A stretch of DNA of 63,768 nucleotides, the filler included, from Phoronis australis (Eukaryota; Animalia; Phoronida): the NCBI GenBank assembly GCA_002633005.1. It is 4 parts of 4 records of this genome, joined end to end, with 100 filler letters (N's around TTAATTAATTAA, not from the genome) between each part and the next. Parts side by side here need not be neighbours in the genome. Positions count along the whole stretch, not along the records: positions 29,641 to 59,418 come from NMRA01001196.1; 3 more parts are not named here. One strand, 5' to 3'. Below, in pieces: positions 7,782-58,050 of this stretch (position 1 is the stretch's first letter; the number at the start of each line of letters is the position of its first letter). Both the position numbers and the translations under genes were made by a program. Below the pieces are notes generated by a model. That model made no database searches. It was not told the origin of the DNA and saw nothing but the letters and a program-made list of their open reading frames with translations.

Positions 7782-9313
7782 ACATGGACCGCCAACTCCG
7801 TATACATTCAAAGCACGAAATCTGTGATCTTACGCAAAAGCCCTTACGTCATTATTCACTGGCGACACCTGGCTAAGTTTTCTGAATCAATTTTCGGCAA
7901 GTACGTCGTCTGCTAATCCTCGTCGGCTACTGTGTGGCCGGTTGTTCGGCCACACCCACGAAATGCTAAGGAATTAGTTTCCATACCATCCGAAGACCGC
8001 ATAATCGGCTGCGGAAAGAAAAGCTTATATACTTCTTGTGCCTACGTGAATGGCAGTTGTCTCAGCAATAAGACTTTATACATTTGTTCAAGGCACTTCG
8101 AAGATGAATGTTTTTAAGAGGCTCTACTACTTAATCCTGTCCTTACAAATCCATTTTTCTTTTCTCCGTTTTGATGAAAACTATCTGGTAAACTTTTTTG
8201 ACGAAAATCGTCCGCTAAATTTCTTCCAAAGGTAGTGACTCATGAACTCCTGTCCTTACGAGGAACTTCAGTCATAGTGTAGTGAGCGAATTAACCAACT
8301 TACTCTTCGCTGGCCCTGATCAGACGGTTGGTCTCAGCAGAATGCGCACATTCGGCCAGGATTTGGATCAGCGATTTCAACAAATTCACATTCGTGTACA
8401 AATAAATAAAACGCTGGTAAAACCTTTAAGATAAATAACGATTGCATTAATACTTCAGAAATAACCAGCTGGACCAGTCAAACTCTCTCTCGCAATTCAA
8501 CAGCAGGTTACACAATATATGCCGCACTAAAGCTCTCGACTGTAGTCTATGAAAATGCAACCAACTCCTTTGAAAACATGGAACAGGAACCCCAAAGGCA
8601 TGTGAAGGTTGTTTTTATTCTTCAATGTTAAATTTGTGTAAGCGGACGAATGGTTTTTAAATTTCCGCCTTAAGTCCTAACATTTCCAAACTCAAGCCAT
8701 TGAAACGAAAGTTAATGACGAAAACAAAATTCTTCAACCAGTTTTGTAAATTCCTATGCCACATGTAAGGTACATAAAGAGCCAATCCCACTCCTAGTGT
8801 AACAAATGGGTCCCGTGCATAAAGGATACTAAGTATTGCCCTTATGAAATATTACCGTATTCGCCCTAATAAGCGGCCAGGGCGCTTGGAAAAATCCGCT
8901 TCAGGAAAGGGGCGCATATTTTAGCCCAATTTGGTTGAAACCCGGTCTCCGAAAGAGGTGAAATCATCAGCTAGAATTCATCAAATTTACGCTCTTTGAC
9001 GAATCTGTAACCTATGACAGAGTTTCTACAAAAATGCAGTGCATTGCTATCAAGCTTTGTTGTCAACTTACGACCATTTTTCAGAAAATCCCACTGAAGA
9101 AAAATTGCCGTGAATCAGGTTTCAAGCTCCTCAGCTTTTTTAACTATATATTAATAAACCATAAAAACGGTTCCAAGTGATTAGTGCATTGCCTGCGCAC
9201 GTCTATTGAATGTGTATCATGCAGCTCCTGATTTAAGCAGTGGTCTGATTTCTTAATTTTGGTCCGGTATAAATAACGCCACTGACCTGGAAATCCAGCG
9301 AAACATTTCTACC
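7782..9313 (+). mobile_element. P-element-like non-autonomous element, sibling of 44105-47974 (outermost TIR bases missing), with THAP remnant
   Basis: 7782-~8852 aligns to 44118-~45251 and ~9198-9313 aligns to ~46251-46368. THAP remnant at 7921-8117: VGYCVAGCS...LYICSRHFEDECF. Confidence 0.8.
8855..9190 (+). mobile_element. Tc1/mariner-pogo-like MITE fragment inserted in the P-like element
   Basis: TA|CCGTATTCGCCCTAATAAGCGGCCAGGGCGCTT begins exactly where homology to the 44105 copy breaks. TA plus CCGTA termini are typical of pogo-like MITEs. 8933-8992 is repeated at ~10895-10955. Right end not defined. Confidence 0.5.
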
Positions 9314-12565: not shown

Positions 12566-12632
12566 ATCGTGGTGGTGTAGTGGTAACACACGCGCTCTCT
12601 AAGCGCGAGGTCGTAAGTTCAAGTCTTTGGTA
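12566..12632 (+). pseudogene. tRNA-like sequence (SINE head or tRNA pseudogene)
   Basis: A box TGGTGTAGTGG, D stem GTGT/ACAC, anticodon stem CGCGC/GCGCG with 7-nt loop TCTCTAA (no U33), AGGTC variable loop and B box GTTCAAGTC. No intact acceptor stem. Confidence 0.55.
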
Positions 12633-14760: not shown

Positions 14761-15105
14761 GAACAATCGTGACCTTGTCTCGGCACCTGAAAAGGAGGCT
14801 TAGGCCAGAGGAATGTATTCCTACATATACTTACTATTAGGACCCAGGATCGGAACTAGGAAGCCCGAAATGGAAAAGTACATGGACACAAGTTAAAAAC
14901 CTCATTGCAAGAATAGGATAGTGACTTAAGAGTAGGCGACCCAGGCTCTTTGGGTAAACACAATACATCGATTGTTTAGTTCTAAATGTCAGCCCAGTGA
15001 GCTTATGGTCAGCCCAACTACTCGCATCAATTGTCCCGATTGACTCAGCTTTAGTGACGATTATCCTCAATACGCCACAGCCATCTTGCTCTCTTGTTTT
15101 TGCAG

Positions 15106-15263
15106 CAACCGCATTTGGTGTTTTGACCATTGGTTTCGCATCTCTGATCGCCTATCATGGCGGCACTATCATCGTGGTTGTCATGACAATACTGGGTGTC
15201 CTGACAAGTCCATTGGTTGCGGTGTACACACTTGGCCTCTTCTTTCCTTGTGTCAACTCGTAT
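15106..15263 (+). CDS. SLC5A8/12/6-like symporter, internal exon
   Basis: TGCAG/GTGAGT splice sites, phase-compatible with the previous exon; encodes (A)TAFGVLTIGFASLIAYHGGTIIVVVMTILGVLTSPLVAVYTLGLFFPCVNSY (two TM segments, LG.FFP..N motif). Confidence 0.92.
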
Positions 15264-16393
15264 GTGAGTATACATTTTTGCACAAGAAGCGACTGAATGC
15301 AAGTGCATCGCATATGTCACCAGCTCACGAATTGTTTTGGTTTTAGCGCGTTTGTGAAATTGAGGGGTTATTCTTGAAATTAAACCCTGAATTCTGAAAT
15401 GCGTTGAAGCCCCTGGATAACCAGAGCCGGATCAGGATTTTCAGTTAGGCGACCAGGGCAGAGTATTAGCCAGAATTTTGCCCGTCAGACATTATCACTC
15501 CCGAACTGCCAAATGGAATCTGGAAATATTTTAGATAGGACCATGGCCCCCTCCCCCCTTAAATCCGCCATTGATAATCATCCCCACTGAAAACCCTTGA
15601 ACAACACATCCAATCTTAGGCCCGCAGAAAACATCATTGGCGGCGTTGACATGGACACGAATGTTTCCAGAAACGTTCATTTGGTCAGTATGACGGAATG
15701 TTTTCCCTGCAATCTCTTTGCTAACACTCGGGTCGTCACCGACCCATCACCGCTACGCTGAAAATTTCAAAGTTATGTCATCACAGTCTGGTCTGTCCCG
15801 TCCAACATCGTCATCACTTTGTTGCCCTAAGATCATCTCTTCGTCAACAAATTTAAGTTAACTTGGCCTGCACTCAAGAACCCCTTGGTACCTCCCACGT
15901 CTTATTTTCCTGCTGATGAGAATTTTGTCGTGTCTTGTGATGGCGAACTTCACAGATTGGAATTTTTGTTTGTCCTGACCCAGAGGCAAACAATACTCGC
16001 TGTTAGAGTTTTGAGTCAACCTGTAGCCTGTTGAATAGGGAGGGGATATGACTAAAAAAACGTTGAGTGTGGGTACCGACTGAAGGGGAGGTGGCGGTGT
16101 TGAAACTGGTTGTGACCGGAGGGATTTCTGCAGAACCTGGGGAGCGAAGTGGTTGGCAAATTACCGACGACCGGTGGCCGAAAATGTGTTAACCGAGATA
16201 AATTTGTTTTCACATCCTCTCACCTATCCCAAAGCATTTGTCCCATGCGTCACATTGAATTATTCAAAAAGGGTGTGAACTGCCCGACAATTTTTTCTCT
16301 GCCGGACTTCATGGCGCACCATCAATACAGCCAAGCAAGCATTGATCGTGCTGCTGCCGCGCTTTATCAATCACTCGATCTGTTTCGTCACAG

Positions 16394-38356: not shown

Positions 38357-40133
38357 ATGGCCCTCGGACAAGAAATGGGTCTGCAGGGGGACAATCTCAG
38401 ACAGTTTGATTAGAAACAACAAGCTGAGGCTTGTGCTGAGGCTGAGGCGGTGGAGAGAAGGCAGGCGCGAGGGGCTGAGGCGGAGGAGAGAAGGCAGGCG
38501 CGATAGGCTAAGGGGGAGGAGAGAAGGCAAGCTCGTGAGGCTGAAGAAAGGGCGCGAGAGGCCGAAGAAAGGGTGCGAGAGGCAGAACAGCAGATGGAGT
38601 GACAAAGAATGGAACACGAGAGGGCGCTAGCAGCACTGAAAGCTGAACAGGTTGCAGCGGAGGGTAGCCATGTTAGATCAACTTGTGGTGTGAAGCCGAA
38701 GCTACCTAAGTTTCACGAAAAGCAGGACGACATAGACAACTTCCTGGAAAGGTTTGAAAGACACTCAGAGAGGCAGGGTTTGACACAGAGTGAATGGGCA
38801 ATTAGTCTCAGTCCCTGTTAACAGGTAAGGGCCTGCAGGTTTATACTACCCTTCCTATGGCTGATGTACTGGACTATGCTACACTAAAAAGAGCCTTGAT
38901 AAAGCGCTATGAGCTGACCGAGGAGGGCTTTTGCAGACAGTTCCGGGAAGCGAGGGTTGAAAGGGGTGAGACGGCTTATCAGTTTCTGGCCTGCATACAG
39001 CGTTACCTAGACAGGTGGATCGACATGTCCGACTGTGGCAAAGACTTTGCCGAGTTGAGAGACATGTTAGTGCGTGAGCAGTACGTTAACACTTGTAATA
39101 AAGACTTGGCTTTGTTCCTGCGAGAGCGGATACCCAAGTCAGTTCCAGAGATGGTGGGCTTAGCGGAGAGTTATATTGAGGCCCATGGAGTGGATATAAG
39201 GAGCACTCAGTCGAAGAAATCCCAAGAACGACCAGTCAAGACAGACAACCAGAATGTCGACCAGAAGAAAACTGACCTCTCAGTGGAAAGATGTTCCTTC
39301 TGTCACAAAACTGGACACCTGGCTAGAGACTGTCGGAAGCGGACACAAGGGATGCAATACCAAAAGTCAGCAGCGGTCAACTACCGAGATTCTCAGTATA
39401 AGGAGGATTCGATGAAGTGTGCTAACCCTGAATGCGCCGTCAAACGATGGCAATGTCTCAAGGAGGGGCATGTTGGCACGAAGAAGGTCTCAGTATTGAG
39501 AGACACAGGCTGCACGACCGTTGTGGTTCGGTCCAGTCTAGTCGAACCAGGAGATATCACCTGCCAGAAGAGGTCATGTGAGTTGGCGGACTCTACCAAG
39601 AGGTGGCTGCCTGTCGCCAGGATCAACATCAAGACACCGTACTACACGGGAGAAGTGTTTGCGATGTGCATGGAGCGCCCAGTGGCCGATTTGATTATCG
39701 GGAACGTACCTGATGCCTTGAACCCAGGGGATGTTGAGCGACAGCAGAGAGCAACAACTGCCAACGAGGACAGTACAGGCAATAGCCTTGTGGAGGGTAC
39801 ACAAGATGACTCTCAAGAAGGTACTACTTCTCAAGAGAAGAAGCAAGTGGCCTCAACTCCAGAGGGAGAAGAGGTGGCCGACATATCGGTAGAAACAGAT
39901 CCTGATGAATACAGCAGGGAAGGGGTAGCAGTGACTACCAGGGCTCAAGCAGAGCGACAAACAAGCGGACATTAAGCCGTTAGCTGTGTCTCCGACTATA
40001 CAAGAGGTGGGACTAAAGCAGTTCAAAAAGCCCAGCATGAAGATTCATCAATGGAAAAGTTGTGGGAGCAAGCTGAAGCCAAAGTTCAGCGACATACCAA
40101 AGGCAAGGGGTCATACGTGATGGAGATTCAGTA
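38357..40133 (+). pseudogene. gag: Gmr1-like Ty3/Gypsy gag-protease, disrupted and truncated before integrase/RT
   Basis: Coiled-coil E/R/A repeats, then KLPKF...DDID.FLERFER...W; SCAN-like capsid (YATLKRALIKRYELTEEGF.RQFR; LVREQY...FLRER.P); Zn knuckle CSFCHKTGHLARDC; aspartic protease LRDTGC; AVTTRAQ. Stops near 38413, 38506 and 38599 and a frameshift near 38820. Confidence 0.92.
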
Positions 40134-42000: not shown

Positions 42001-44254
42001 ATGATTCCATCTGTCGATTGAATGTTACTGTTTCAGATTCTTATCTACAGGTCTGAGTTTTCAGCGTAGAGGCCTCATAATGAATTTTAAACTGAATGTC
42101 TTCTTACAAATGTCACTATTGTCATTTTGCAGGGATTCAGAGCTGTTGTTCATCCTTGTCCTTGTCTTCTTTGTCACCTCACAATCAGCTACAAAGATTA
42201 ATTTGTGTTTCTGCTCTTGTAAAGACTCTATGCTGTATTGGATTTTAAAGTAGATATACACTTTAAGCATGCCTTCTGTCACGAAAACCAACCTTTCATT
42301 TAATAGACCATGTATTATTAGTATGACATTTATCTCAACTTGTTCCTTGATAAAAATAGGTGTGAATTTTGGGCTTGTTACCACTAGAGACAGTTTCTTT
42401 AGGTTGGCTTGTTACAGCATGCCATTTCATTCACCTGACATGGTCACAACCATACTGAACTGAAGTTCTTTGCAAAACAAAAATATTTCTCATTTGAATC
42501 TCATTTGAATAAGGAAAAAGCCGAGATCAATTTTATACTGGTAGGTGGTTAAAATCAAATGTCAATTTGCATGACTAGAACAGGGTTTTATAGCCACTGT
42601 AATTGTTCTGCGAAAAATGCAACTCTATCGTCTTTAAGTGTTGATTTGTCATTGCTTACTGATACGCGATGATAGTATGAACCTTGTTTGAGCTTGATAA
42701 AACAGTTGTAGTAACTGTATATACATATAACGGCTGCTGAGTAGCACTAAGGGCACAACCATATTGCCATGTGTTCTATTTCCAGTCTAAGAAATCTAAG
42801 ATACATGTACAGACCATTAAGTGTTTTGCAATGGTCATCAAAAGTTATGATGCGATGGAGATTTATACTAAGAATTAAATGACAATATGTGCATTAGTTC
42901 TTGCGTCATCTTTCTAACTTGCATCCTCTCGCACATGTTGATACTAGCATTCAGTCTGTGCCATGGGTACGGTTATCACTACTTGTACCCAATGGTGATT
43001 TTCTTTGCCCTGTATCTTTGGTTTTAGTGTTTCAGTGCTCAATTATATTTTACACGGGTACTTCAGTGAAAAATCAAAGAAGCAGTCACAGATTAAGAAA
43101 GGTCTATACTCCACTGCCACTGGCGTCCATAATTAACAGATGCTTGAGAGAAAAACAAAGCGTGCACAAATTTGACACATGACTTCCTGGTGCCACCCAG
43201 TACATTACCTTGAGTTCAATGGTCTTGCAATGACAACACATGTTAATTGATCTATCAAAGAAACTACCATTGCTTCAGTGAACACTTGACAAAAACGTTA
43301 AAATTAATTTTGCACAGTACCTTGACGTGGATATAGACTCTAGTCAATACAAAAGGGCACGCCATTATTCTTCATTCTATTCGTTCACCGCAGAGTATAT
43401 AAGTCTGACATTTCACTTTTATATAAGTTAACCAAGAATACTTGATCACTGTTTGCCTAAATGCGACTCCAAAGCTGTGATACAGTACCTGCTTTGAAAC
43501 TGAAATGTTCATGTAACTCGGTTCAGGTTAATGCTATCAAATTGCTTCATCTGCTTTTTTTGATCCACGTGGTGTGAATTGACTACGCAATTAAAATAAA
43601 TATGTCCGCAGCTCGATTAATTGCCTGTCATGCTGCATCTCTTGTTTGTATTTACACTTCTGTTATGTTTTAATTACTACAGTCAAATGCATTTGATGTT
43701 GTGCAGGTTAAACTTTGGCACTGAAAATCCATTCTGTTAATGTGATTACGTCATTGCTGTTAAAGCTGCTATAAACCTTCAAATAAACCAAATCTTGATT
43801 TTGACCATATATTATCGGCCCAGTACACGTGATTTCTGGAATTAGAAAGAACTGATTATAGGTCTAACCTCAGCCTATCAACTTAGCTTGAAACAGCATA
43901 TTTTTTTCTAAGTGAATTCGTTCCAAGGCAAGAAACTCATACTCACCTGGTTAAAGAAAATTACTGAAAGGAGGTTTGATGCAGAAAATGGTGTAAATCA
44001 AAAGTTTATTATTGATGGAATGTGGGTTTATAGAAACTTTAATAATCCTATTGCATTAAACGAGAATGCCACCCAAAAACAACCTATTTTGTATTGATTT
44101 AGATCATAGACTATAGTACATGGACCGCCAACTCCGTATACTTTCAATGGACGAAATCTGTGAGCTTGCGCACAAGCGCTAACGTCATTATTCACTGGCG
44201 ACACCTGGCTAAATTATCTGGTGTAATTTCCGGCAAGTACGTCGTCTGCTAATC

Positions 44255-44448
44255 ATGGTCGGCTGCTGTGTGGCCGGTTGTTCGGCTACGCCGGCGAAAT
44301 GCAGAGGCGTTAGCTTCCATAGTGTACGGAGATCCCAAAATCCGCTGTGGGAGAAAAAGTTATTTTCTCGCGTCGACGTGAATGGAAGTTGTTCTTCCAA
44401 AAAAAAACTTGTACATTTGTTCACGTCACTTCGAAGATGTTTTTTAAG
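44255..44448 (+). pseudogene. THAP zinc-finger remnant (transposase N-terminus)
   Basis: MVGCCVAGCSATPAKCRGVSFH...LWEKKL.../frameshift in A-run/LYICSRHFED: the C2CH THAP signature. Confidence 0.85.
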
Positions 44449-46091
44449 AGGCTCTGGTAGGCCTACTACTTAATCCTGTCTTCACAAATCCATTTTTCTT
44501 TTCTCCGTTTTGATGAAAACTATCTGGTAAACTTTTTGACGAAAAATGTCCGCTAAATTTCTTCCAATGGTAGTGACTGGTGAACTCTTGTCCTTACGAG
44601 GACCTTCAGCCATAGTCTAGTGAGCGAATTAACCAAATTACTCTTCGGTGGCCCTGATCAGACGGTTGGTCTCAGCATAATGCGCACATTTGGCCAGGAT
44701 TTGGATCAGCGATTTGAACAAATTCACATTCGTGTACAAATAAATAGGACGCTAGTAAAACCTTTAACATAAATAAAGATTACATTAATACTTCAGAAAT
44801 AAATACCTGGACCTGTCAAAATCTATCCCGCAATTCAACAGCAGGTTACATACTCAATTATTTATGTCGACTGTATGCCGCACAAAACTTGAACCATCTT
44901 AGCCAAGTACGCTGCAGTCTATGAAAATACCGATAACTAACCCGAGTTTCAACTTCTTTGCAAACATGGAACAGGGATATCAAAGGGGTATGAAGGTTGT
45001 TTTTATGCTTCAATGTTACATTTTTGTAAGCAGACAAATGTTTTTTTTTAAATCTACCATAATTCCTACTATTTCAAAAGTATTTCCAAACCTTTGGTCT
45101 TTCAAACGTACATTGATGACAAAACCATATTTCTTCAACCGGTTTTGTAAAGTCCTACACCACCTCCACATAATATGAACCAATCCTACTCCTAATGTAA
45201 CAAAAAGGTCCCGTGCGTAACGGATACTAAGTATGGTCCTTCTGAAATATTGGATAGGTTCTGCTAACGCAACCTCGCGAAAAGTCACACAAGAACTCGT
45301 GACATGTACCATCGCGTTACAAGTGAGCAATAACGAATTGTCAGTTATGTCGAACTTTACTCCAATTAGACATTGATATTGCATTTAAAAAAGTAAGAGG
45401 TCTAATCAAGAGAAAAATACTTTTGTGACGGAAGGCGAATTTAGTCATGTAGCCGATTCAATTTTAAACAAACTCATTTGAGAAAAATACTGAAACCACC
45501 ACCTTCCATTTGAAAAATCGCCATTGTCAAACAACTGCAAACACATATAAAATCGTTTCATATGCTGTTTGGAAAAGATGCCTTTAACATAATTCAAATT
45601 CAAATTATCTTTAAGCACATAAATGTATTTACTTGATTTTTTGATGAAAACATGGATTCAAGATCCTCGTTCCAGTTCGCCATCTCAGATTTTTCCTGGA
45701 AAAAAGTCGCTTGAAATTTTCACTGTTCAAATGCAACCGTAAAGTCATTATATTATTTCCCCGTGAAATTTGCTAAAGCTATGTAACCTCATTCACTGTC
45801 CAGAATAACGAAAAACCTCGGAAGCAAGGGAAATGAACCCTAAGAGGTAGCAAGCAAGATAAAGGGGGTGGTAGGGACGTGAAGCTGACGTGTGCTAATT
45901 TTCAATTTCATACTTTTATGTGGCATTTTCATAATTTTGATTTGAGATGTCAACTCAGATCAAACGGTTTGAAAGTTCGGATTTTTAATTTGTAATGAAC
46001 TTGAGTTGCACTGCACGTGACCTTTTATGAATTTACCGTAGTTGGCTACAGACAGGCCCACCTTTATAAAAACTAGCAACGTAGACAAACG

Positions 46092-46527: not shown

Positions 46528-46670
46528 CATGCGCGCCACTCAGAGGGGGGGGGTCGGAGCCCCCCCCATTTGGCAAAGTGGGCAAAAAGGTCTGCCCGCT
46601 CTCTTGTTAACAACAGTTCCATAACGTCAGGAATTCGAGCCCCCCATTTTGAAGACTGGGTGCGCGCATG
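46528..46670. mobile_element. MITE of the same TIR family, 5-bp TSD CACGT
   Basis: CATGCGCGC...CTGGGTGCGCGCATG; CACGT at 46523-46527 and 46671-46675; shares the internal ATTCGAGCCCCC with the 46092 copy. Confidence 0.85.
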
Positions 46671-46841
46671 CACGTGAGTCCCTGGACAGCCCCAATATGG
46701 TAAAACCCAAGGAGCTCAAGTCGGGGTTAAATCAGGATGGGCATAAATAAGGAAATTTACTGTATCAACAGATTAGACAAATAAGAATAAGATACAAAGC
46801 ATTGATACAGTGTACACGCGCACAATAACTGGGTCTATCAA

Positions 46842-46940
46842 TTTTCCCGCCGCAAGCGATTGAACCAATCGGATCACCAATGGCGCAAACCTTTCGAAAA
46901 CAAGCCTAATTTTTAGGGAGTCTGTTACTGCTCTTTATAT
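46842..46940 (+). promoter_or_regulatory. Putative cell-cycle-type promoter (E2F, 2x CCAAT, CHR-like, TATA-like)
   Basis: TTTCCCGC 46843-46850, CCAAT 46865 and 46877, GGCGCAAA 46882-46889, TTTCGAAA 46892-46899 and TTTATAT ~46934, 120-220 bp upstream of ATG 47061. Motif matches only. Confidence 0.45.
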
Positions 46941-47060
46941 TTTCAAAACTTTAATTTGTTATAGTTAATTTATTTGCTGTGCACCTCAATGAGACCAGTT
47001 CATATATATGCATTTAACACTATTAATACATTGTAAAACCATAGATTATGCACTATCAAC

Positions 47061-47243
47061 ATGAGCCAAAAACAGTACACCCCTTTATTAAAAAATGGGT
47101 TAAAGGTTAGAAACAAAGGACGAGAGCGTAGACAAGTTTCCATCACTTGCAACGTCGATTTTTTACGATGGACGTTGGAGAAGAACATCAGTCTGGTGAC
47201 AGCAACACGGAATCGTACGAAGGCGATGATTTTCGAAATTTGA
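47061..47243 (+). CDS. Short basic ORF (60 aa) overlapping the PHD ORF; possible N-terminus of a -1 frameshift fusion
   Basis: Good start context (CAACATGA); K/R-rich MSQKQYTPLLKNGLKVRNKGRERRQ...; T TTT TTA at 47159-47165 is in phase. Confidence 0.4.
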   Translation: MSQKQYTPLLKNGLKVRNKGRERRQVSITCNVDFLRWTLEKNISLVTATRNRTKAMIFEI

Positions 47244-47485
47244 TTCGTTGTGTTGTTTGTCATTTTTTTCCTACAGTTCAGGATTATTTGTGGATACAGG
47301 AACAAGAACTGAACGATGCAGGGTTCGTGACAACGTTGGTGAACGGTGATATCTATCTAAGGTGTTACAACTGTCATCGATATTGTCATCTCCTCTGTTT
47401 TCATCCAACCTTTCCAGATGAAAACTTTAATGAAGAGGACCTTCAGTACTTGAGTGAGCATGGCATACTGTGTGATTTATGTTGA
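47168..47485 (+). CDS. Intronless C4HC3 PHD-like zinc-finger protein (105 aa)
   Basis: Intact ORF with C28-x2-C31-x34-C66-x2-C69-x4-H74-x2-C77-x24-C102-x2-C105. It has an acidic N-terminus and stops immediately after the last Cys. Confidence 0.8.
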   Translation: MDVGEEHQSGDSNTESYEGDDFRNLIRCVVCHFFPTVQDYLWIQEQELNDAGFVTTLVNGDIYLRCYNCHRYCHLLCFHPTFPDENFNEEDLQYLSEHGILCDLC

Positions 47486-47495
47486 ATTATTCAAC

Positions 47496-47511
47496 GGTTC
47501 TTTTAAGAACC
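47496..47511 (+). terminator. Histone-type 3' stem-loop 1
   Basis: CAAC-GGTTCT TTTA AGAACC-A: 6-bp stem and 4-nt loop matching the metazoan consensus GGYYYU-UYUN-ARRRCC, 10 nt after the TGA. Confidence 0.8.
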
Positions 47512-47536
47512 ATTTCACGCTATACCTACAACCAAC

Positions 47537-47576
47537 GGCCCTTTTAAGGGCCACTCAACACTGCCCAGAAGAACTG
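47537..47576 (+). terminator. Histone-type 3' stem-loop 2 plus HDE-like element
   Basis: CCAAC-GGCCCT TTTA AGGGCC-ACTCA (stem-loop 47537-47552) has canonical A/C-rich flanks. Purine-rich AGAAGAACTG at 47567-47576 sits at the usual HDE distance. Confidence 0.88.
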
Positions 47577-48142
47577 CTCACTTGAGAATGTTGATTTATA
47601 AACACGCTTTCGTAGTTTTCTCAGTAGGCCTATGTGAACCGTAAATCAAAAACTGTCCGATAACTATGCTGCTATTGGGCAAGCAGACGACATAAAGGGT
47701 CGGAACCGAAGTTTGAATTTTGAAATTAATTACCAGTAGCATTGCCAAAAGTACTCACAATACCAACACTTCTACTATTGAAAGACTTTGAAAAGCGTTT
47801 CAATACCGAAATTGATATAAATTAATGTTTTTTTCGCTGTTTTGGACAGTAAAGTAGATGCAAGTATTTCTCGTCAAATTACACTGACCGGAAACTGCAG
47901 CTGATAGGTCAGGAGAGTTGAACTCAGCTCGTAAGAATATGCTGGAGTTGCGAATCTGTTGTCTATAATCTATGTTTAGATCGAGTAGCTCTACTCGATA
48001 ACGGCACGTTCGGTTGCGTTACCTGACACCTGACGGCAGACGGAGGAGTTGAAATTATCCAATGACGTTTCACACGCAGTCTGTTCAGCAGTTCACAACA
48101 CGGGTTAGTGGTGTCAGCTTATCGCTTGAATTTATAGTTTAA

Positions 48143-48378
48143 CAGAGGCGGATCTACAGGGGGGNNNNNNNGGGGGGGGGGGGGTGCAGGGAGCTTAACC
48201 CCCCTCGGGACAAGATCAAAAATAAAAATTGAAAAAAAAATTGCCAGAAAACCGAAATTAGCTACTAAAAACCACAGAAAATATTACACAGGAGGAAGGA
48301 AACCTTCCTTCCCCTCCTACGCGTCTCGGATTCGCTCGAATCCCAACCCCCCTTACGAAACACGCATATCTGCCACTG
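48143..48378. mobile_element. MITE with CAG(A/T)GGCGGAT-type TIRs (hAT-like)
   Basis: CAGAGGCGGATCTA...ATATCTGCCACTG; flanks AGTTTAA/TGTTTAA are similar. Related ends at ~12760-12773, 15422-15573, ~29716-29728 and 59410. Confidence 0.65.
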
Positions 48379-48539: not shown

Positions 48540-49713
48540 TCTGTTCGGAGTAAATTCGATATATTCTTCCGTGAAATGCAGACAGGAGAACCTAGATCTG
48601 TGTTGTTTATACTTGTGATTTTTTAGCTCTAAACACACAAAACGCTTGCTATCCCGCCCAGTGGCTCGGAACCCGATCACTAGGCCCGGCGTAGCGGCCG
48701 GACTGACTCGCTATCCCGGCCAAAGATACTTGTCCCGGCCAGTGGCTCGGAACTCGATCATGCCCGTCGCGGCCGCCGGGACTGGCATGAACATAAATCA
48801 GCTTGAGTTGGAAACTAAACCTCCAGTAACGAAAATACTATAATAGTGAAATAATGTGCACGTAATTATTAATGGGAATGAAACTGAAAAGCTAATTGAT
48901 TTGCGAAGTCGGTTTCCCCTTTCAAAGACCGTCAGGGAAAAGGTTGTACAGTAACAATGATTTGAATAATGTATTTGTATTTCTAAATAAAGATTCCCCT
49001 AACATGTGACCATAGCATATATAATCGAGTAATTGTTTCACAACAGCTTTCTGTCAGCAAACACTGAATTAGTATGCGCTCACACGGCCTCGGTGCCCGG
49101 TCATTTACCTTTGTTGCAGGCATCAAAAGCCGGTAAAGCAATGGTTTATTCATTGCTGGCTTCTCAAAGCATTTGCACTCTCGAGCACTCCAAGGCATTA
49201 CAAATTGTATCTAATGAGACAGACTTTGTTTCAGTTTCATTAAGCATTGGTTAGTATGAAAATAATTCGTTTTGAAACAGAACGCAGAATAATAAACTTC
49301 TACATTGCAACTCGCCCGGCGCCAATCCTGTCTTAGTCAAGAGCTCATCCGACGAAGACTTCACGGCTCGGATCCTCAGGTTTCATAGGGCCTGGCTATA
49401 AGTTCGAACCGGAAAACACTGATCAAGTAATACTAGAGAGGCAACGGAACGTATGGATTGGATAATTACTTGGTAAGCCGACGTTCGTCAGGCACTGTCG
49501 ACGACTGCAGGCCACAGTTACGGACTCTGAGATGTTTCACGGCCTCATACTTGCTATTTACAGCGTACTTTTCATTCTTCACTATCATGAGCCACTTCCT
49601 AAGCATTTCGGTCTTTCGAGGAAGTCGAAAAAATGATTTACCCGCTTTTCTCGCAGCTGCATAGTTCGGACAAGCGGGAATGATGCACCACAACATAGCG
49701 GCATTCACTCTGA
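48540..49713 (-). mobile_element. Kolobok deletion derivative (THAP start plus opposed KolX-like start), inverted copy of 56948-58050
   Basis: Minus-strand THAP MLWCIIPACPNY...SFFRLPR...LRKWL...HLRV..CGL; plus-strand GYKFEPENTD (YxFEP, KolX-like N-terminus); sub-terminal GC-rich repeats at 48646-48780. Confidence 0.75.
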
Positions 49714-51779: not shown

Positions 51780-52810
51780 ATGACATTAATGGATAAATTT
51801 CCACAGGTGCTGATTACCAGCACACACTCAGATGCAAATCTCACACTCTTTGTGAAGATTTGAAGGTTATTGGCTCTTATATGTGATTTACTGTCATGCC
51901 GTTGTGAGTTTATGAACTGCATAGAGTAGGCATCACATTTTGTGAAAACGTGAAACCTTATGCATAAATGTCTTGGTAAGTCTCTTCTATGTGTCCAGAA
52001 GTAAGCATCATGTGTTTTGTGAATGTGGAAAACTTAGATATTGCCGTGAATCACTGTTGTGCGTCCAGATGGAAGTAACACATACTTTGTGAAAAACAAG
52101 AAACCTGGTACATGAACATGTCTGTTAAACCACTTGGAGTATATGCATCGAGAAGGGGCCATTACTGTGGTTGTGAAAATGTGAAAAAGCTGGTTCATAA
52201 ATGTCATTGTGAGTCACTTACCCTCTTCCAGACGAAAGTTTAAAGAAGATACAGAACACATTGTTTAAGGCTCTGTGTGAACCACTTCTATGCTTTCTGA
52301 AAGGGCTTAGATGTCTTTGTGAATCGTTCTAGTGTACAAAGACGAAAGTTTCACTTTTTTAAAAATACGAAACCTGGGTCATCGATGTCTTTTTGAATAT
52401 GTACTTACCGATGCAGTTGTCACATATCTTATGAAAATGTAAAGACTAAGGCTCAGTGTTGCGTGAAAACTGGTGCATAGTTACCTTTGCGAATGACGTC
52501 TATATGTCCTGCTGCAAGATCCATATTAATTTGTTGTTAGTGCAACAGATGTACGCAGTCGTCTTGATACCAACATCACATACTAAGTTTAAGTGTGACC
52601 CTGAAGAGCAGTTGCATTGTAGTGATCTTAGTTACCTGTTTTCGGTAAGATATGTGTCTCAATAAATCACCTTTTGCAATCCTTTGACTTATATTTTTTT
52701 GAAAATGTTAACTCTGCACTACGCCTTGTATTTGTGATCAATCTGGCATGAAAACATCTTGTTATGTTATTTTTGCAAGCATCATCTGCTTTGTGAAACT
52801 GTAGAAAACA
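51780..52810. repeat. Decayed tandem array (~70-90-bp period)
   Basis: Recurrent TTGTGAAAA.GTGAAA...ATGTC.TTGTGA.TC motifs at ~51851, 51940, 52018, 52088, 52172, 52430 and 52792. Confidence 0.45.
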
Positions 52811-56789: not shown

Positions 56790-58050
56790 AGGAGAATGCC
56801 ACCCGATTTAATTAGTCTTTTATGCCGTCTTGATCGGTCTATATCCACTTCGCCTCGCATACGGTCGACCTTACCTTGCCAAGAGATGTCGCTTTAACCT
56901 GTGAGGAAGGTGAGAAAGGACGCTAGCGACGTCAGTGGTTCATCTGCAGAGTGAATGCCGCTATGTTGCGGTGCATCGTTCCCGCTTGTCCGAACTATGC
57001 AGCTGCGAGAAAAGCGGGTATATCATTTTTTTCGACTTCCTCGAGAGACCGAAATGCTTAGGAAGTGACTCGTGATAGTGAAGAATGAAAAGTACGCTGT
57101 AAATAGCAAGTATGAGGCCGTGAAACATCTCCATGTCTGTGGCCTGCAGTCGTCGACAGTGCCTGACGAACGTCGGCTTACCAAGTAATTATCCAATCCA
57201 TACGTTACGTTGTCTGATCTTGTTCACGGCGCCTCTCTAATATTTCTGCATCACTGTATTCCTGTTCGAATTGATAGCCAGTGAAACTTAACGATCCACC
57301 TGCGAAGTCTTCGTAGGGATCGACTGATGAGCTCTCGTCTAAGTCGAGATTGTGAGTTGCCATGTTGATGTTTATTACTGAGCGTTTTGTTTCAAAATGA
57401 ATTATTCTCACCCTAACCAATACTTACATAAAACTGAAACAAAGTCTGCCTCATTAGATGCAATTTGTAATTCCTTTGGAGTGTTCGTGAGTGCAAATGA
57501 TTTGAGAAGCCAGCAATTAATAAATCACTGCGTTACCGGCTTTAGGTGCTCATGCTAATTTAGTGTTTGCTGGCAGAAACTGTTATGAAACAACTCAGTC
57601 GATTTCCACCCCACGGACTGTTAGGGGAGTCTTACATTTACATAATTAAAATATTGTCATTGTACAACTACTGCCCTGACGGTGCTGTGGCCAAAGCGGA
57701 ACCTAAATTCGCGGCTCCCGACGAGTAAGTAGATTTGCAATTCGTGTGTAATTCACCAACATAATAACGTGTGCATTACTTTGGCTCACTAGTATAGTAT
57801 TTTGTTGACTGGAAGTTTAGTTTCCAACTTTGGCTGATTTATGTTCGTGATGTCTGATCAGTTTCCGAGCCACTGGCCGGGATAACGAGTCAATCCGACC
57901 GGCCGCGACGGGCCTGATCGGGCTCCGAGCTACTGGCCAGGATAACAAGCGTTTTGTGTGGTTAGAACTCAAAAAATCACAAGTCTAAACAACACGGATC
58001 TAGGTTAGCCAGTCTGTATCTCACGGAAAATACTTCGAATTTGTCTCCGA
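56790..58050 (+). mobile_element. Kolobok deletion derivative (THAP start plus opposed KolX-like start)
   Basis: TTAA|AGGAGAATGCC terminus; THAP MLRCIVPACPNYAAARKAGISFF...HLHVCGL; minus-strand MATHNLDLDESSSVDPYEDF...GYQFEQEYSDAEILERRR; cut at ~58050 by a LINE fragment. Confidence 0.8.

Follow-up and report, generated by a model that had tools for sequence, protein, structure and literature searches.

Two hairpins of the type found at the 3' end of replication-dependent histone mRNAs stand in tandem behind a small ORF for a PHD-like protein, and this pairing is real and well beyond chance. The stretch examined, hereafter the window, comprises 63,768 bases of repeat-rich animal genomic DNA with a GC content of about 39%. 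The account we tentatively prefer, as quite possible without being probable, is that the ORF belongs to a transposase-less transposon derivative that has kept its PHD gene, that the hairpins lie at the site of the transposase, and that the second of them may end part of the transcripts via SLBP/U7. Within this account the origin of the ORF as a transposon gene is fairly clear, and use of the hairpins by SLBP and U7 is plausible. The features at the 3' end of the gene are:

47168..47485 (+), PHD-like C4HC3 ORF of 105 aa, from translation and family homology
47496..47511 (+), histone-type stem-loop 1 (SL1), RF00032 score 22.8 bits, below the gathering threshold of 34
47537..47552 (+), histone-type stem-loop 2 (SL2), RF00032 score 34.8 bits, above the gathering threshold of 34
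47567..47573 (+), candidate histone downstream element (HDE) AGAAGAA, read directly in the sequence

Two histone-type stem-loops behind the ORF

The initial annotation had placed two histone-type stem-loops and a purine run behind the ORF, and direct reading, a consensus pattern and the MFE fold all confirmed them. SL1 begins 10 nt past the ORF stop and has no purine run behind it; the AGAAGAA purine run starts 14 nt past stem 2. Both hairpins have a 6-bp stem, a 4-nt loop, the invariant G-C and U-A pairs and the loop U residues. The strict stem-loop consensus matched exactly twice in the 63,768 bases, at SL1 and SL2, and no match of any kind occurred in 100 shuffles. The MFE fold contains both hairpins, with z-scores of -4.1 for 47483-47600, -4.4 for SL1 alone and -1.5 for SL2 alone. 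The comparison with Rfam RF00032 that had been proposed for the pair gave a divided answer, with SL2 above threshold (E 2.4e-6) and SL1 below it (E 0.075), the model's 3' flank being unmatched in SL1.

A preprint gives an expected distance of 25-60 nt between the stop codon and the 26-nt histone element (bioRxiv 10.64898/2026.10.14.759114). SL2 falls within this range at 46 nt and SL1 falls outside it at 5 nt. Only SL2 combines a canonical score, suitable spacing and a candidate HDE. The absence of AATAAA from the hairpin region, remarked on earlier, was borne out, the first AATAAA or ATTAAA downstream of the stop being at 48221. Also in agreement with the earlier remark, no histone coding remnant was seen in the window ORF lists or in a rough search for a handful of histone peptide motifs.

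The two hairpin units align in a 41-nt register and many of the differences surrounding the hairpins are transitions, a pattern that fits an old tandem duplication. Judged from this alignment, SL2 probably arose from SL1 by a 41-nt tandem duplication and has diverged from it. Both hairpins are perfect despite the divergence around them. The differences between the stems had been described as compensatory changes; they do amount to two valid hairpin variants, but with two copies only they carry no phylogenetic covariation signal.

These observations bear on a different explanation, in which the gene is a decaying transposon gene, the hairpin pair is an unused passenger (a captured piece of a histone 3' UTR or a two-hairpin cassette), and the RNA over the unit comes from several copies, as read-through or as background. 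The perfection of both stems within diverged units argues against this, as do the orientation of the hairpins and the spacing of SL2, which suit use, and the lack of a visible histone coding remnant. We regard it as rather unlikely while giving it real weight, and the observations in its favor are given with the relatives' loci and the RNA coverage below.

The PHD-like protein and the loci of its relatives

The 105-aa C4HC3 ORF of the initial annotation was recovered at 47168-47485 (+). Its zinc ligands are C28, C31, C66, C69, H74, C77, C102 and C105, in C4HC3 order, and the stop codon stands immediately 3' of the last ligand, C105. No splice joint over 46800-47600 appears among the read joints listed. 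The protein stays under the Pfam cut-offs (PF00628, 10.1 vs 24), and PDB sequence searches returned weak matches only. With an AlphaFold model of mean pLDDT 77, named PHD fingers took ranks 1-9 in Foldseek (best E 0.04) and ranks 1-11 in VIA (best Z 4.8, rmsd 2.8, 62 residues), both scores being modest. In the ESM Atlas the recognition value was low, with PHD clusters at 0.85-0.88 that serve as leads only. Given this predicted fold, PHD-like is a fair label for the product. The description of the protein as chromatin-reader-like holds as far as the ligand pattern and the predicted fold, in which PHD fingers top both Foldseek and VIA, can carry it. A 60-codon ORF at 47061-47243 (+) overlaps the beginning of the PHD ORF in a different frame and would be relevant only if transcription began upstream of 47061; it has no Pfam match and was treated as chance.

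A phmmer search of 1.84 billion representatives returned eight hits, seven of them true homologs and the eighth (P0008) rejected as a repeat artefact. Of 1,133 candidates, 31 matched an eight-sequence profile (A2) at E<=0.01, and one of these is named (Dreissena polymorpha). Conserved across the family are the zinc ligands and, near the N terminus, an acidic motif resembling S-D-T-E-S; PHD_NSD was matched at E<=0.1 by 24 of the 27 aligned members, and P0016 scored above the PF22908 cut-off. P0001 is 96% identical to the window protein with a shifted tail, and P0006 and P0039 are short-tailed homologs. P0003 has five near-identical members on five separate Mb-size contigs; these five PHD ORFs (P0003, P0009-P0012) are intact, which suggests that the family was recently active in some animal. 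For longer, fused versions of the protein, none of 7,986 candidates scored, which is weak evidence.

In a tree of 34 rows, from which fragments, near-copies and the artefact were left out (P0001, P0004, P0005, P0007, P0008, P0009-P0011, P0037 and L002), the window protein has a long branch of 1.59 substitutions per site and groups with P0002 only. The four relatives' loci described below (L001-L004) are therefore distant relatives. This long separate branch, together with an intact ORF that has all eight ligands, would also suit domestication of the PHD gene by the host lineage, in which it would now form a small, non-mobile family of host genes whose 3' ends are of histone type. We consider domestication improbable, and return to it with the copies seen in sequencing reads.

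Relatives' DNA comprises four loci out of 129 pattern matches from one metagenome scan, all of them distant, and the window ORF matched them by tblastn at E 1.6e-13 to 9e-7. Past the PHD stop a second ORF starts, after 31 nt in L001 and after 2 nt in L002, L003 and L004. In L004 the C-terminal part of this second ORF matches DUF7869 above the cut-off (27.7 vs 26; Atlas 0.97) and carries three Asp motifs (D99, D176 and D217), which we take to be those of Sola1 DDD transposases. The L004 protein is matched by the second ORFs of L001, L002 and L003 at E 5e-54, 5e-77 and 5e-7, respectively, and a Dreissena gene model (P0033) has a PHD ORF and a tail matching the L004 protein (54% over 50 aa, E 2e-13). 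For the DUF7869 protein, a model of pLDDT 41 gave weak top rows in Foldseek that were largely nuclease domains (E at least 0.008) and unrelated alpha/beta folds in VIA; as the model is too poor, nothing is drawn from these matches. Several of the relatives' loci are broken by stops or frameshifts.

Read from their sequences, the PHD-then-DUF7869 pairs most likely represent a two-gene cut-and-paste transposon. With an adjoining DUF7869 gene in 4/4 loci and in Dreissena P0033, the window ORF is most likely the first gene of such a transposon and not viral. Of the earlier proposal of a mobile or virus-derived gene, the first half is thus supported, as in all four loci a member of the PHD ORF family is the first gene of an element that bears a transposase, and the second half found no support. 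Relatives were absent from viral contigs queried with the ORF, the ORF alignment, the L004 protein and the strict hairpin pattern; no viral fold match was found in BFVD at E<=0.001, although viral collections contain few animal endogenous elements; and the prokaryote genomes scanned gave no match. A gene from an endogenous virus or Polinton-like element with histone-type ends is the least credible of the readings, and we give it very little weight: besides these negative searches, no viral gene is evident among the long window ORFs, part of which were scanned against Pfam, and all contexts read are transposase-like.

The window itself holds no DUF7869 partner, as the L004 protein has no tblastn match at E<=1 in the 63.8 kb, so the window copy would be non-autonomous. 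The lack of a transposase nearby also accords with domestication. None of the four relatives carries a hairpin behind its PHD ORF, whether sought with RF00032 at E<=5, with the strict pattern or as a relaxed hairpin. The expectation that homologous ORFs would keep the stem-loop was accordingly disappointed in these distant relatives; the hairpins are not ancestral to the family, and the result favors their being passengers.

Two further features of the relatives' loci were observed. The 2-nt gap between PHD stop and DUF7869 ATG (L002:3378-3385, L003:2341-2349 and L004:181-188; 3/4 loci) points to one message with both ORFs, whose translation would be coupled or involve re-initiation. At L003:1270-2120 a reverse-transcriptase-like fragment of another element, identified by eye, cuts the 5' end of the PHD ORF.

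Promoter-like cluster, element ends and RNA coverage

Upstream of the ORF and at the possible ends of the element, the following candidates were noted:

46842..46889 (+), promoter-like cluster from a motif search: E2F-type TTTTCCCGCC, CCAAT boxes at 46865 and 46877, E2F-like TGGCGCAAA
45792..45815 (+), weak candidate left terminal inverted repeat, 20/24 pairing with 47830-47853
47830..47853 (-), weak candidate right terminal inverted repeat, 20/24 pairing with 45792-45815

The words in 46842-46889 are presumably E2F-type sites and CCAAT boxes. One of 53 window tiles contains the cluster, shuffling of the 1.2 kb upstream produced it 23 times in 1000, and a cluster of like type precedes the PHD ORF in L001 (2/1000 shuffles) and L002 (5/1000), these shuffle figures being generous because the motif was chosen after looking. 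The cluster is absent from L003, whose 5' part is the reverse-transcriptase piece, and L004 is without 5' DNA. A splice-acceptor-like site lies directly before the ATG in L001 and L002, and none is present in the window.

Under one scoring, 2 of 100 shuffles contained an inverted pair as good as the candidate; under another, at least 10 of 100 did. No target-site duplication, AWWT included, was found at the candidate ends 45792 and 47853, and the true ends may lie elsewhere. Depth in run X11 falls near 47830-47853; a contig of run X5 (47699-47911) and reads of runs X9 and X10 cross it. Such unconvincing termini are a further point in favor of domestication.

Very high-copy short repeats flank the gene at 46560-46670 and 47975-48144 (summed X5 contig depth above 1,000, with many loose ends). 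Each of two families of repeats about 1.1 kb long occurs twice in the window, at 44118-45251 and 7782-8853 (79%, direct) and at 48545-49712 and 56947-58050 (74%, inverted), and 51800-52810 holds many degenerate short direct repeats with TTTGTGAA in common. A 372-aa gag-like ORF at 38857-39975 (+), with a SCAN match at E 4e-8 and a weak zinc knuckle, is probably an LTR-retrotransposon remnant. Between masked or gap runs, 12573-12629 (+) is tRNA-like (Rfam 29.6 vs 29 bits), possibly a SINE head or a pseudogene. The hydrophobic open frame at 14958-15293 (+) has no Pfam match and resembles a sodium:solute symporter exon.

Five runs from one organism and two studies, their kinds guessed and one of them possibly the source data, contained 70-82% of 73 sampled words in assemblies of only 16-177 million letters, which suggests repetition or transcription of the stretch. 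An X5 contig covers 47299-47594 with three differences, none of them in the stems, and so links ORF and hairpins outside the source assembly. Another X5 contig has three gaps at the ORF start, and a 1-nt deletion at 47263 was seen in 12 of 97 reads (X9-X11). Together with the shifted tail of P0001, these are signs of several copies, some of them broken. Several versions of the unit co-occur within single runs. Five of the eight ORF variants listed, these being the best-supported rows of the list, are non-synonymous, giving no sign of strong constraint. Domestication is weakened by all three observations, namely the frameshifted variants in reads and contigs, the non-synonymous variants and the several versions within single runs. 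The existence of frameshifted copies suits a decaying gene with passenger hairpins.

X9, X10 and X11 are three RNA runs of one study, of each of which 18-19% was read, with library selection unspecified and copies mixed. Over the far upstream, near upstream, ORF, hairpin and just-behind regions, mean depth was 6, 18, 54, 38 and 57 in X9; 3, 14, 32, 42 and 50 in X10; and 1, 2, 10, 6 and 7 in X11. RNA depth 7-10 times as high as in the far upstream flank is the remaining point for domestication. The reads lie over the unit in both orientations. In X9-X11 depth neither drops past the hairpins nor spikes over them, and read ends do not pile up at 47516 or 47557; the only listed pile, of six molecules at 47526, is off the predicted cleavage sites. 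The unit is RNA-covered above background, and nothing shows termination at the hairpins.

Depth that does not fall behind the hairpins, with reads in both orientations, is what unused passenger hairpins would give, and on this evidence U7 cleavage is unproven. The missing spike counts the other way, as it means that in these data the hairpins do not occur as an abundant repeat in their own right. With library selection unspecified and with read-through known for H2A.X (see below), the RNA depth weakens U7 use and does not refute it.

Possible 3'-end use and comparison with known systems

The reading that we tentatively prefer, of a transposase-less transposon derivative whose hairpins are in use, would work as follows. 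A non-autonomous derivative of a two-gene cut-and-paste transposon would keep its PHD-like first gene and a cell-cycle-type promoter, and the hairpins would occupy the place where the relatives' transposase-like gene begins. The E2F/CCAAT cluster would give S-phase transcription, and host SLBP/U7 would cleave near 47557 at SL2 and AGAAGAA. The product would be a short, non-polyadenylated S-phase message that coexists with read-through RNA, as for H2A.X. The PHD protein may read histone tails for the element or, in trans, for its autonomous partners, and DUF7869 would be a Sola1-type DDD transposase, to judge by its motifs.

A bolder version holds that a transposon lineage put the stem-loops behind its PHD gene, making a chromatin reader a non-histone client of SLBP/U7 that is timed to S phase by both its E2F/CCAAT promoter and its 3' end; this we consider doubtful, if worth stating. 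If it were true, a U7 cut in the autonomous parent would sever the PHD message from the transposase, acting as a switch. The SLBP/U7 pathway is described as serving replication-dependent histone mRNAs only, and a transposon-derived user, if true, would be a natural non-histone client. The system also has a built-in comparison, in relatives that share the ORF and the type of promoter but have a transposase where the window copy has hairpins, which makes the acquisition of S-phase 3'-end control by a gene testable.

Full-text literature searches yielded no paper on histone stem-loops behind a transposon gene, on a PHD ORF in Sola elements or on DUF7869 as a transposase; Repbase or Dfam may already annotate the PHD ORF. 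In the bivalve transposon library of PMC10294476 the search covered roughly the opening 400 letters of each sequence, and the full library may annotate the PHD ORF as well. A small PHD gene 2 nt before a DUF7869 transposase-like gene is apparently an undescribed two-gene layout. Independently of the hairpins, this layout is a lead on the content of DUF7869 elements and on possible chromatin reading by them.

Histone mRNA 3' ends involve SLBP, U7 snRNP and CPSF73. The unit resembles the 3' end of a replication-dependent histone mRNA in its 16-nt hairpin with invariant pairs and loop residues, its A/C-rich 5' flank, its position close behind the stop, the purine run 14 nt past SL2 and the lack of a nearby poly(A) hexamer. 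Unlike such an end, it follows an ORF for a PHD-like protein and no histone, and its hairpins are in tandem, with SL1 too near the stop and without an HDE, and with reads crossing both. Histone mRNAs are described as the only known non-polyadenylated cellular mRNAs, and H2AFX (H2A.X) as a gene with stem-loop and HDE that yields both a stem-loop form and a longer read-through RNA (PMC4604434). H2A.X is thus alike in being a stem-loop gene with RNA running past; it differs in being a histone with proven ends, whereas those of the window unit are predicted.

Among transposons the closest likeness is to Sola-type DDD elements, probably Sola1, in the relatives' DUF7869 ORF with its three Asp motifs and in being multi-copy and often broken. 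The window copy differs from Sola1 in lacking a transposase and in showing no AWWT duplication at either candidate end; a 4-bp AWWT target-site duplication is given as the Sola1 hallmark in PMC3845634. Sola1 elements are reported in bivalves (PMC10294476), and among the consensus starts in its supplement file 24, E2F-like words can be made out by eye close to the 5' end of some curated bivalve Sola1 sequences.

The protein shares the C4HC3 order of PHD fingers (MLL3/4 PHD6, Pygo, NSD-type), and such fingers top Foldseek and VIA. It differs from them in that the window family consists of stand-alone proteins of 94-111 aa, with an extra helix separating ligand pairs 1 and 2, an acidic N-terminal motif and a G-I-x-C-x-x-C motif. 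At that site the usual PHD motif is W-x-C-x-x-C. PHD cargo is known from other transposons, in Mutator-like elements and in RAG2.
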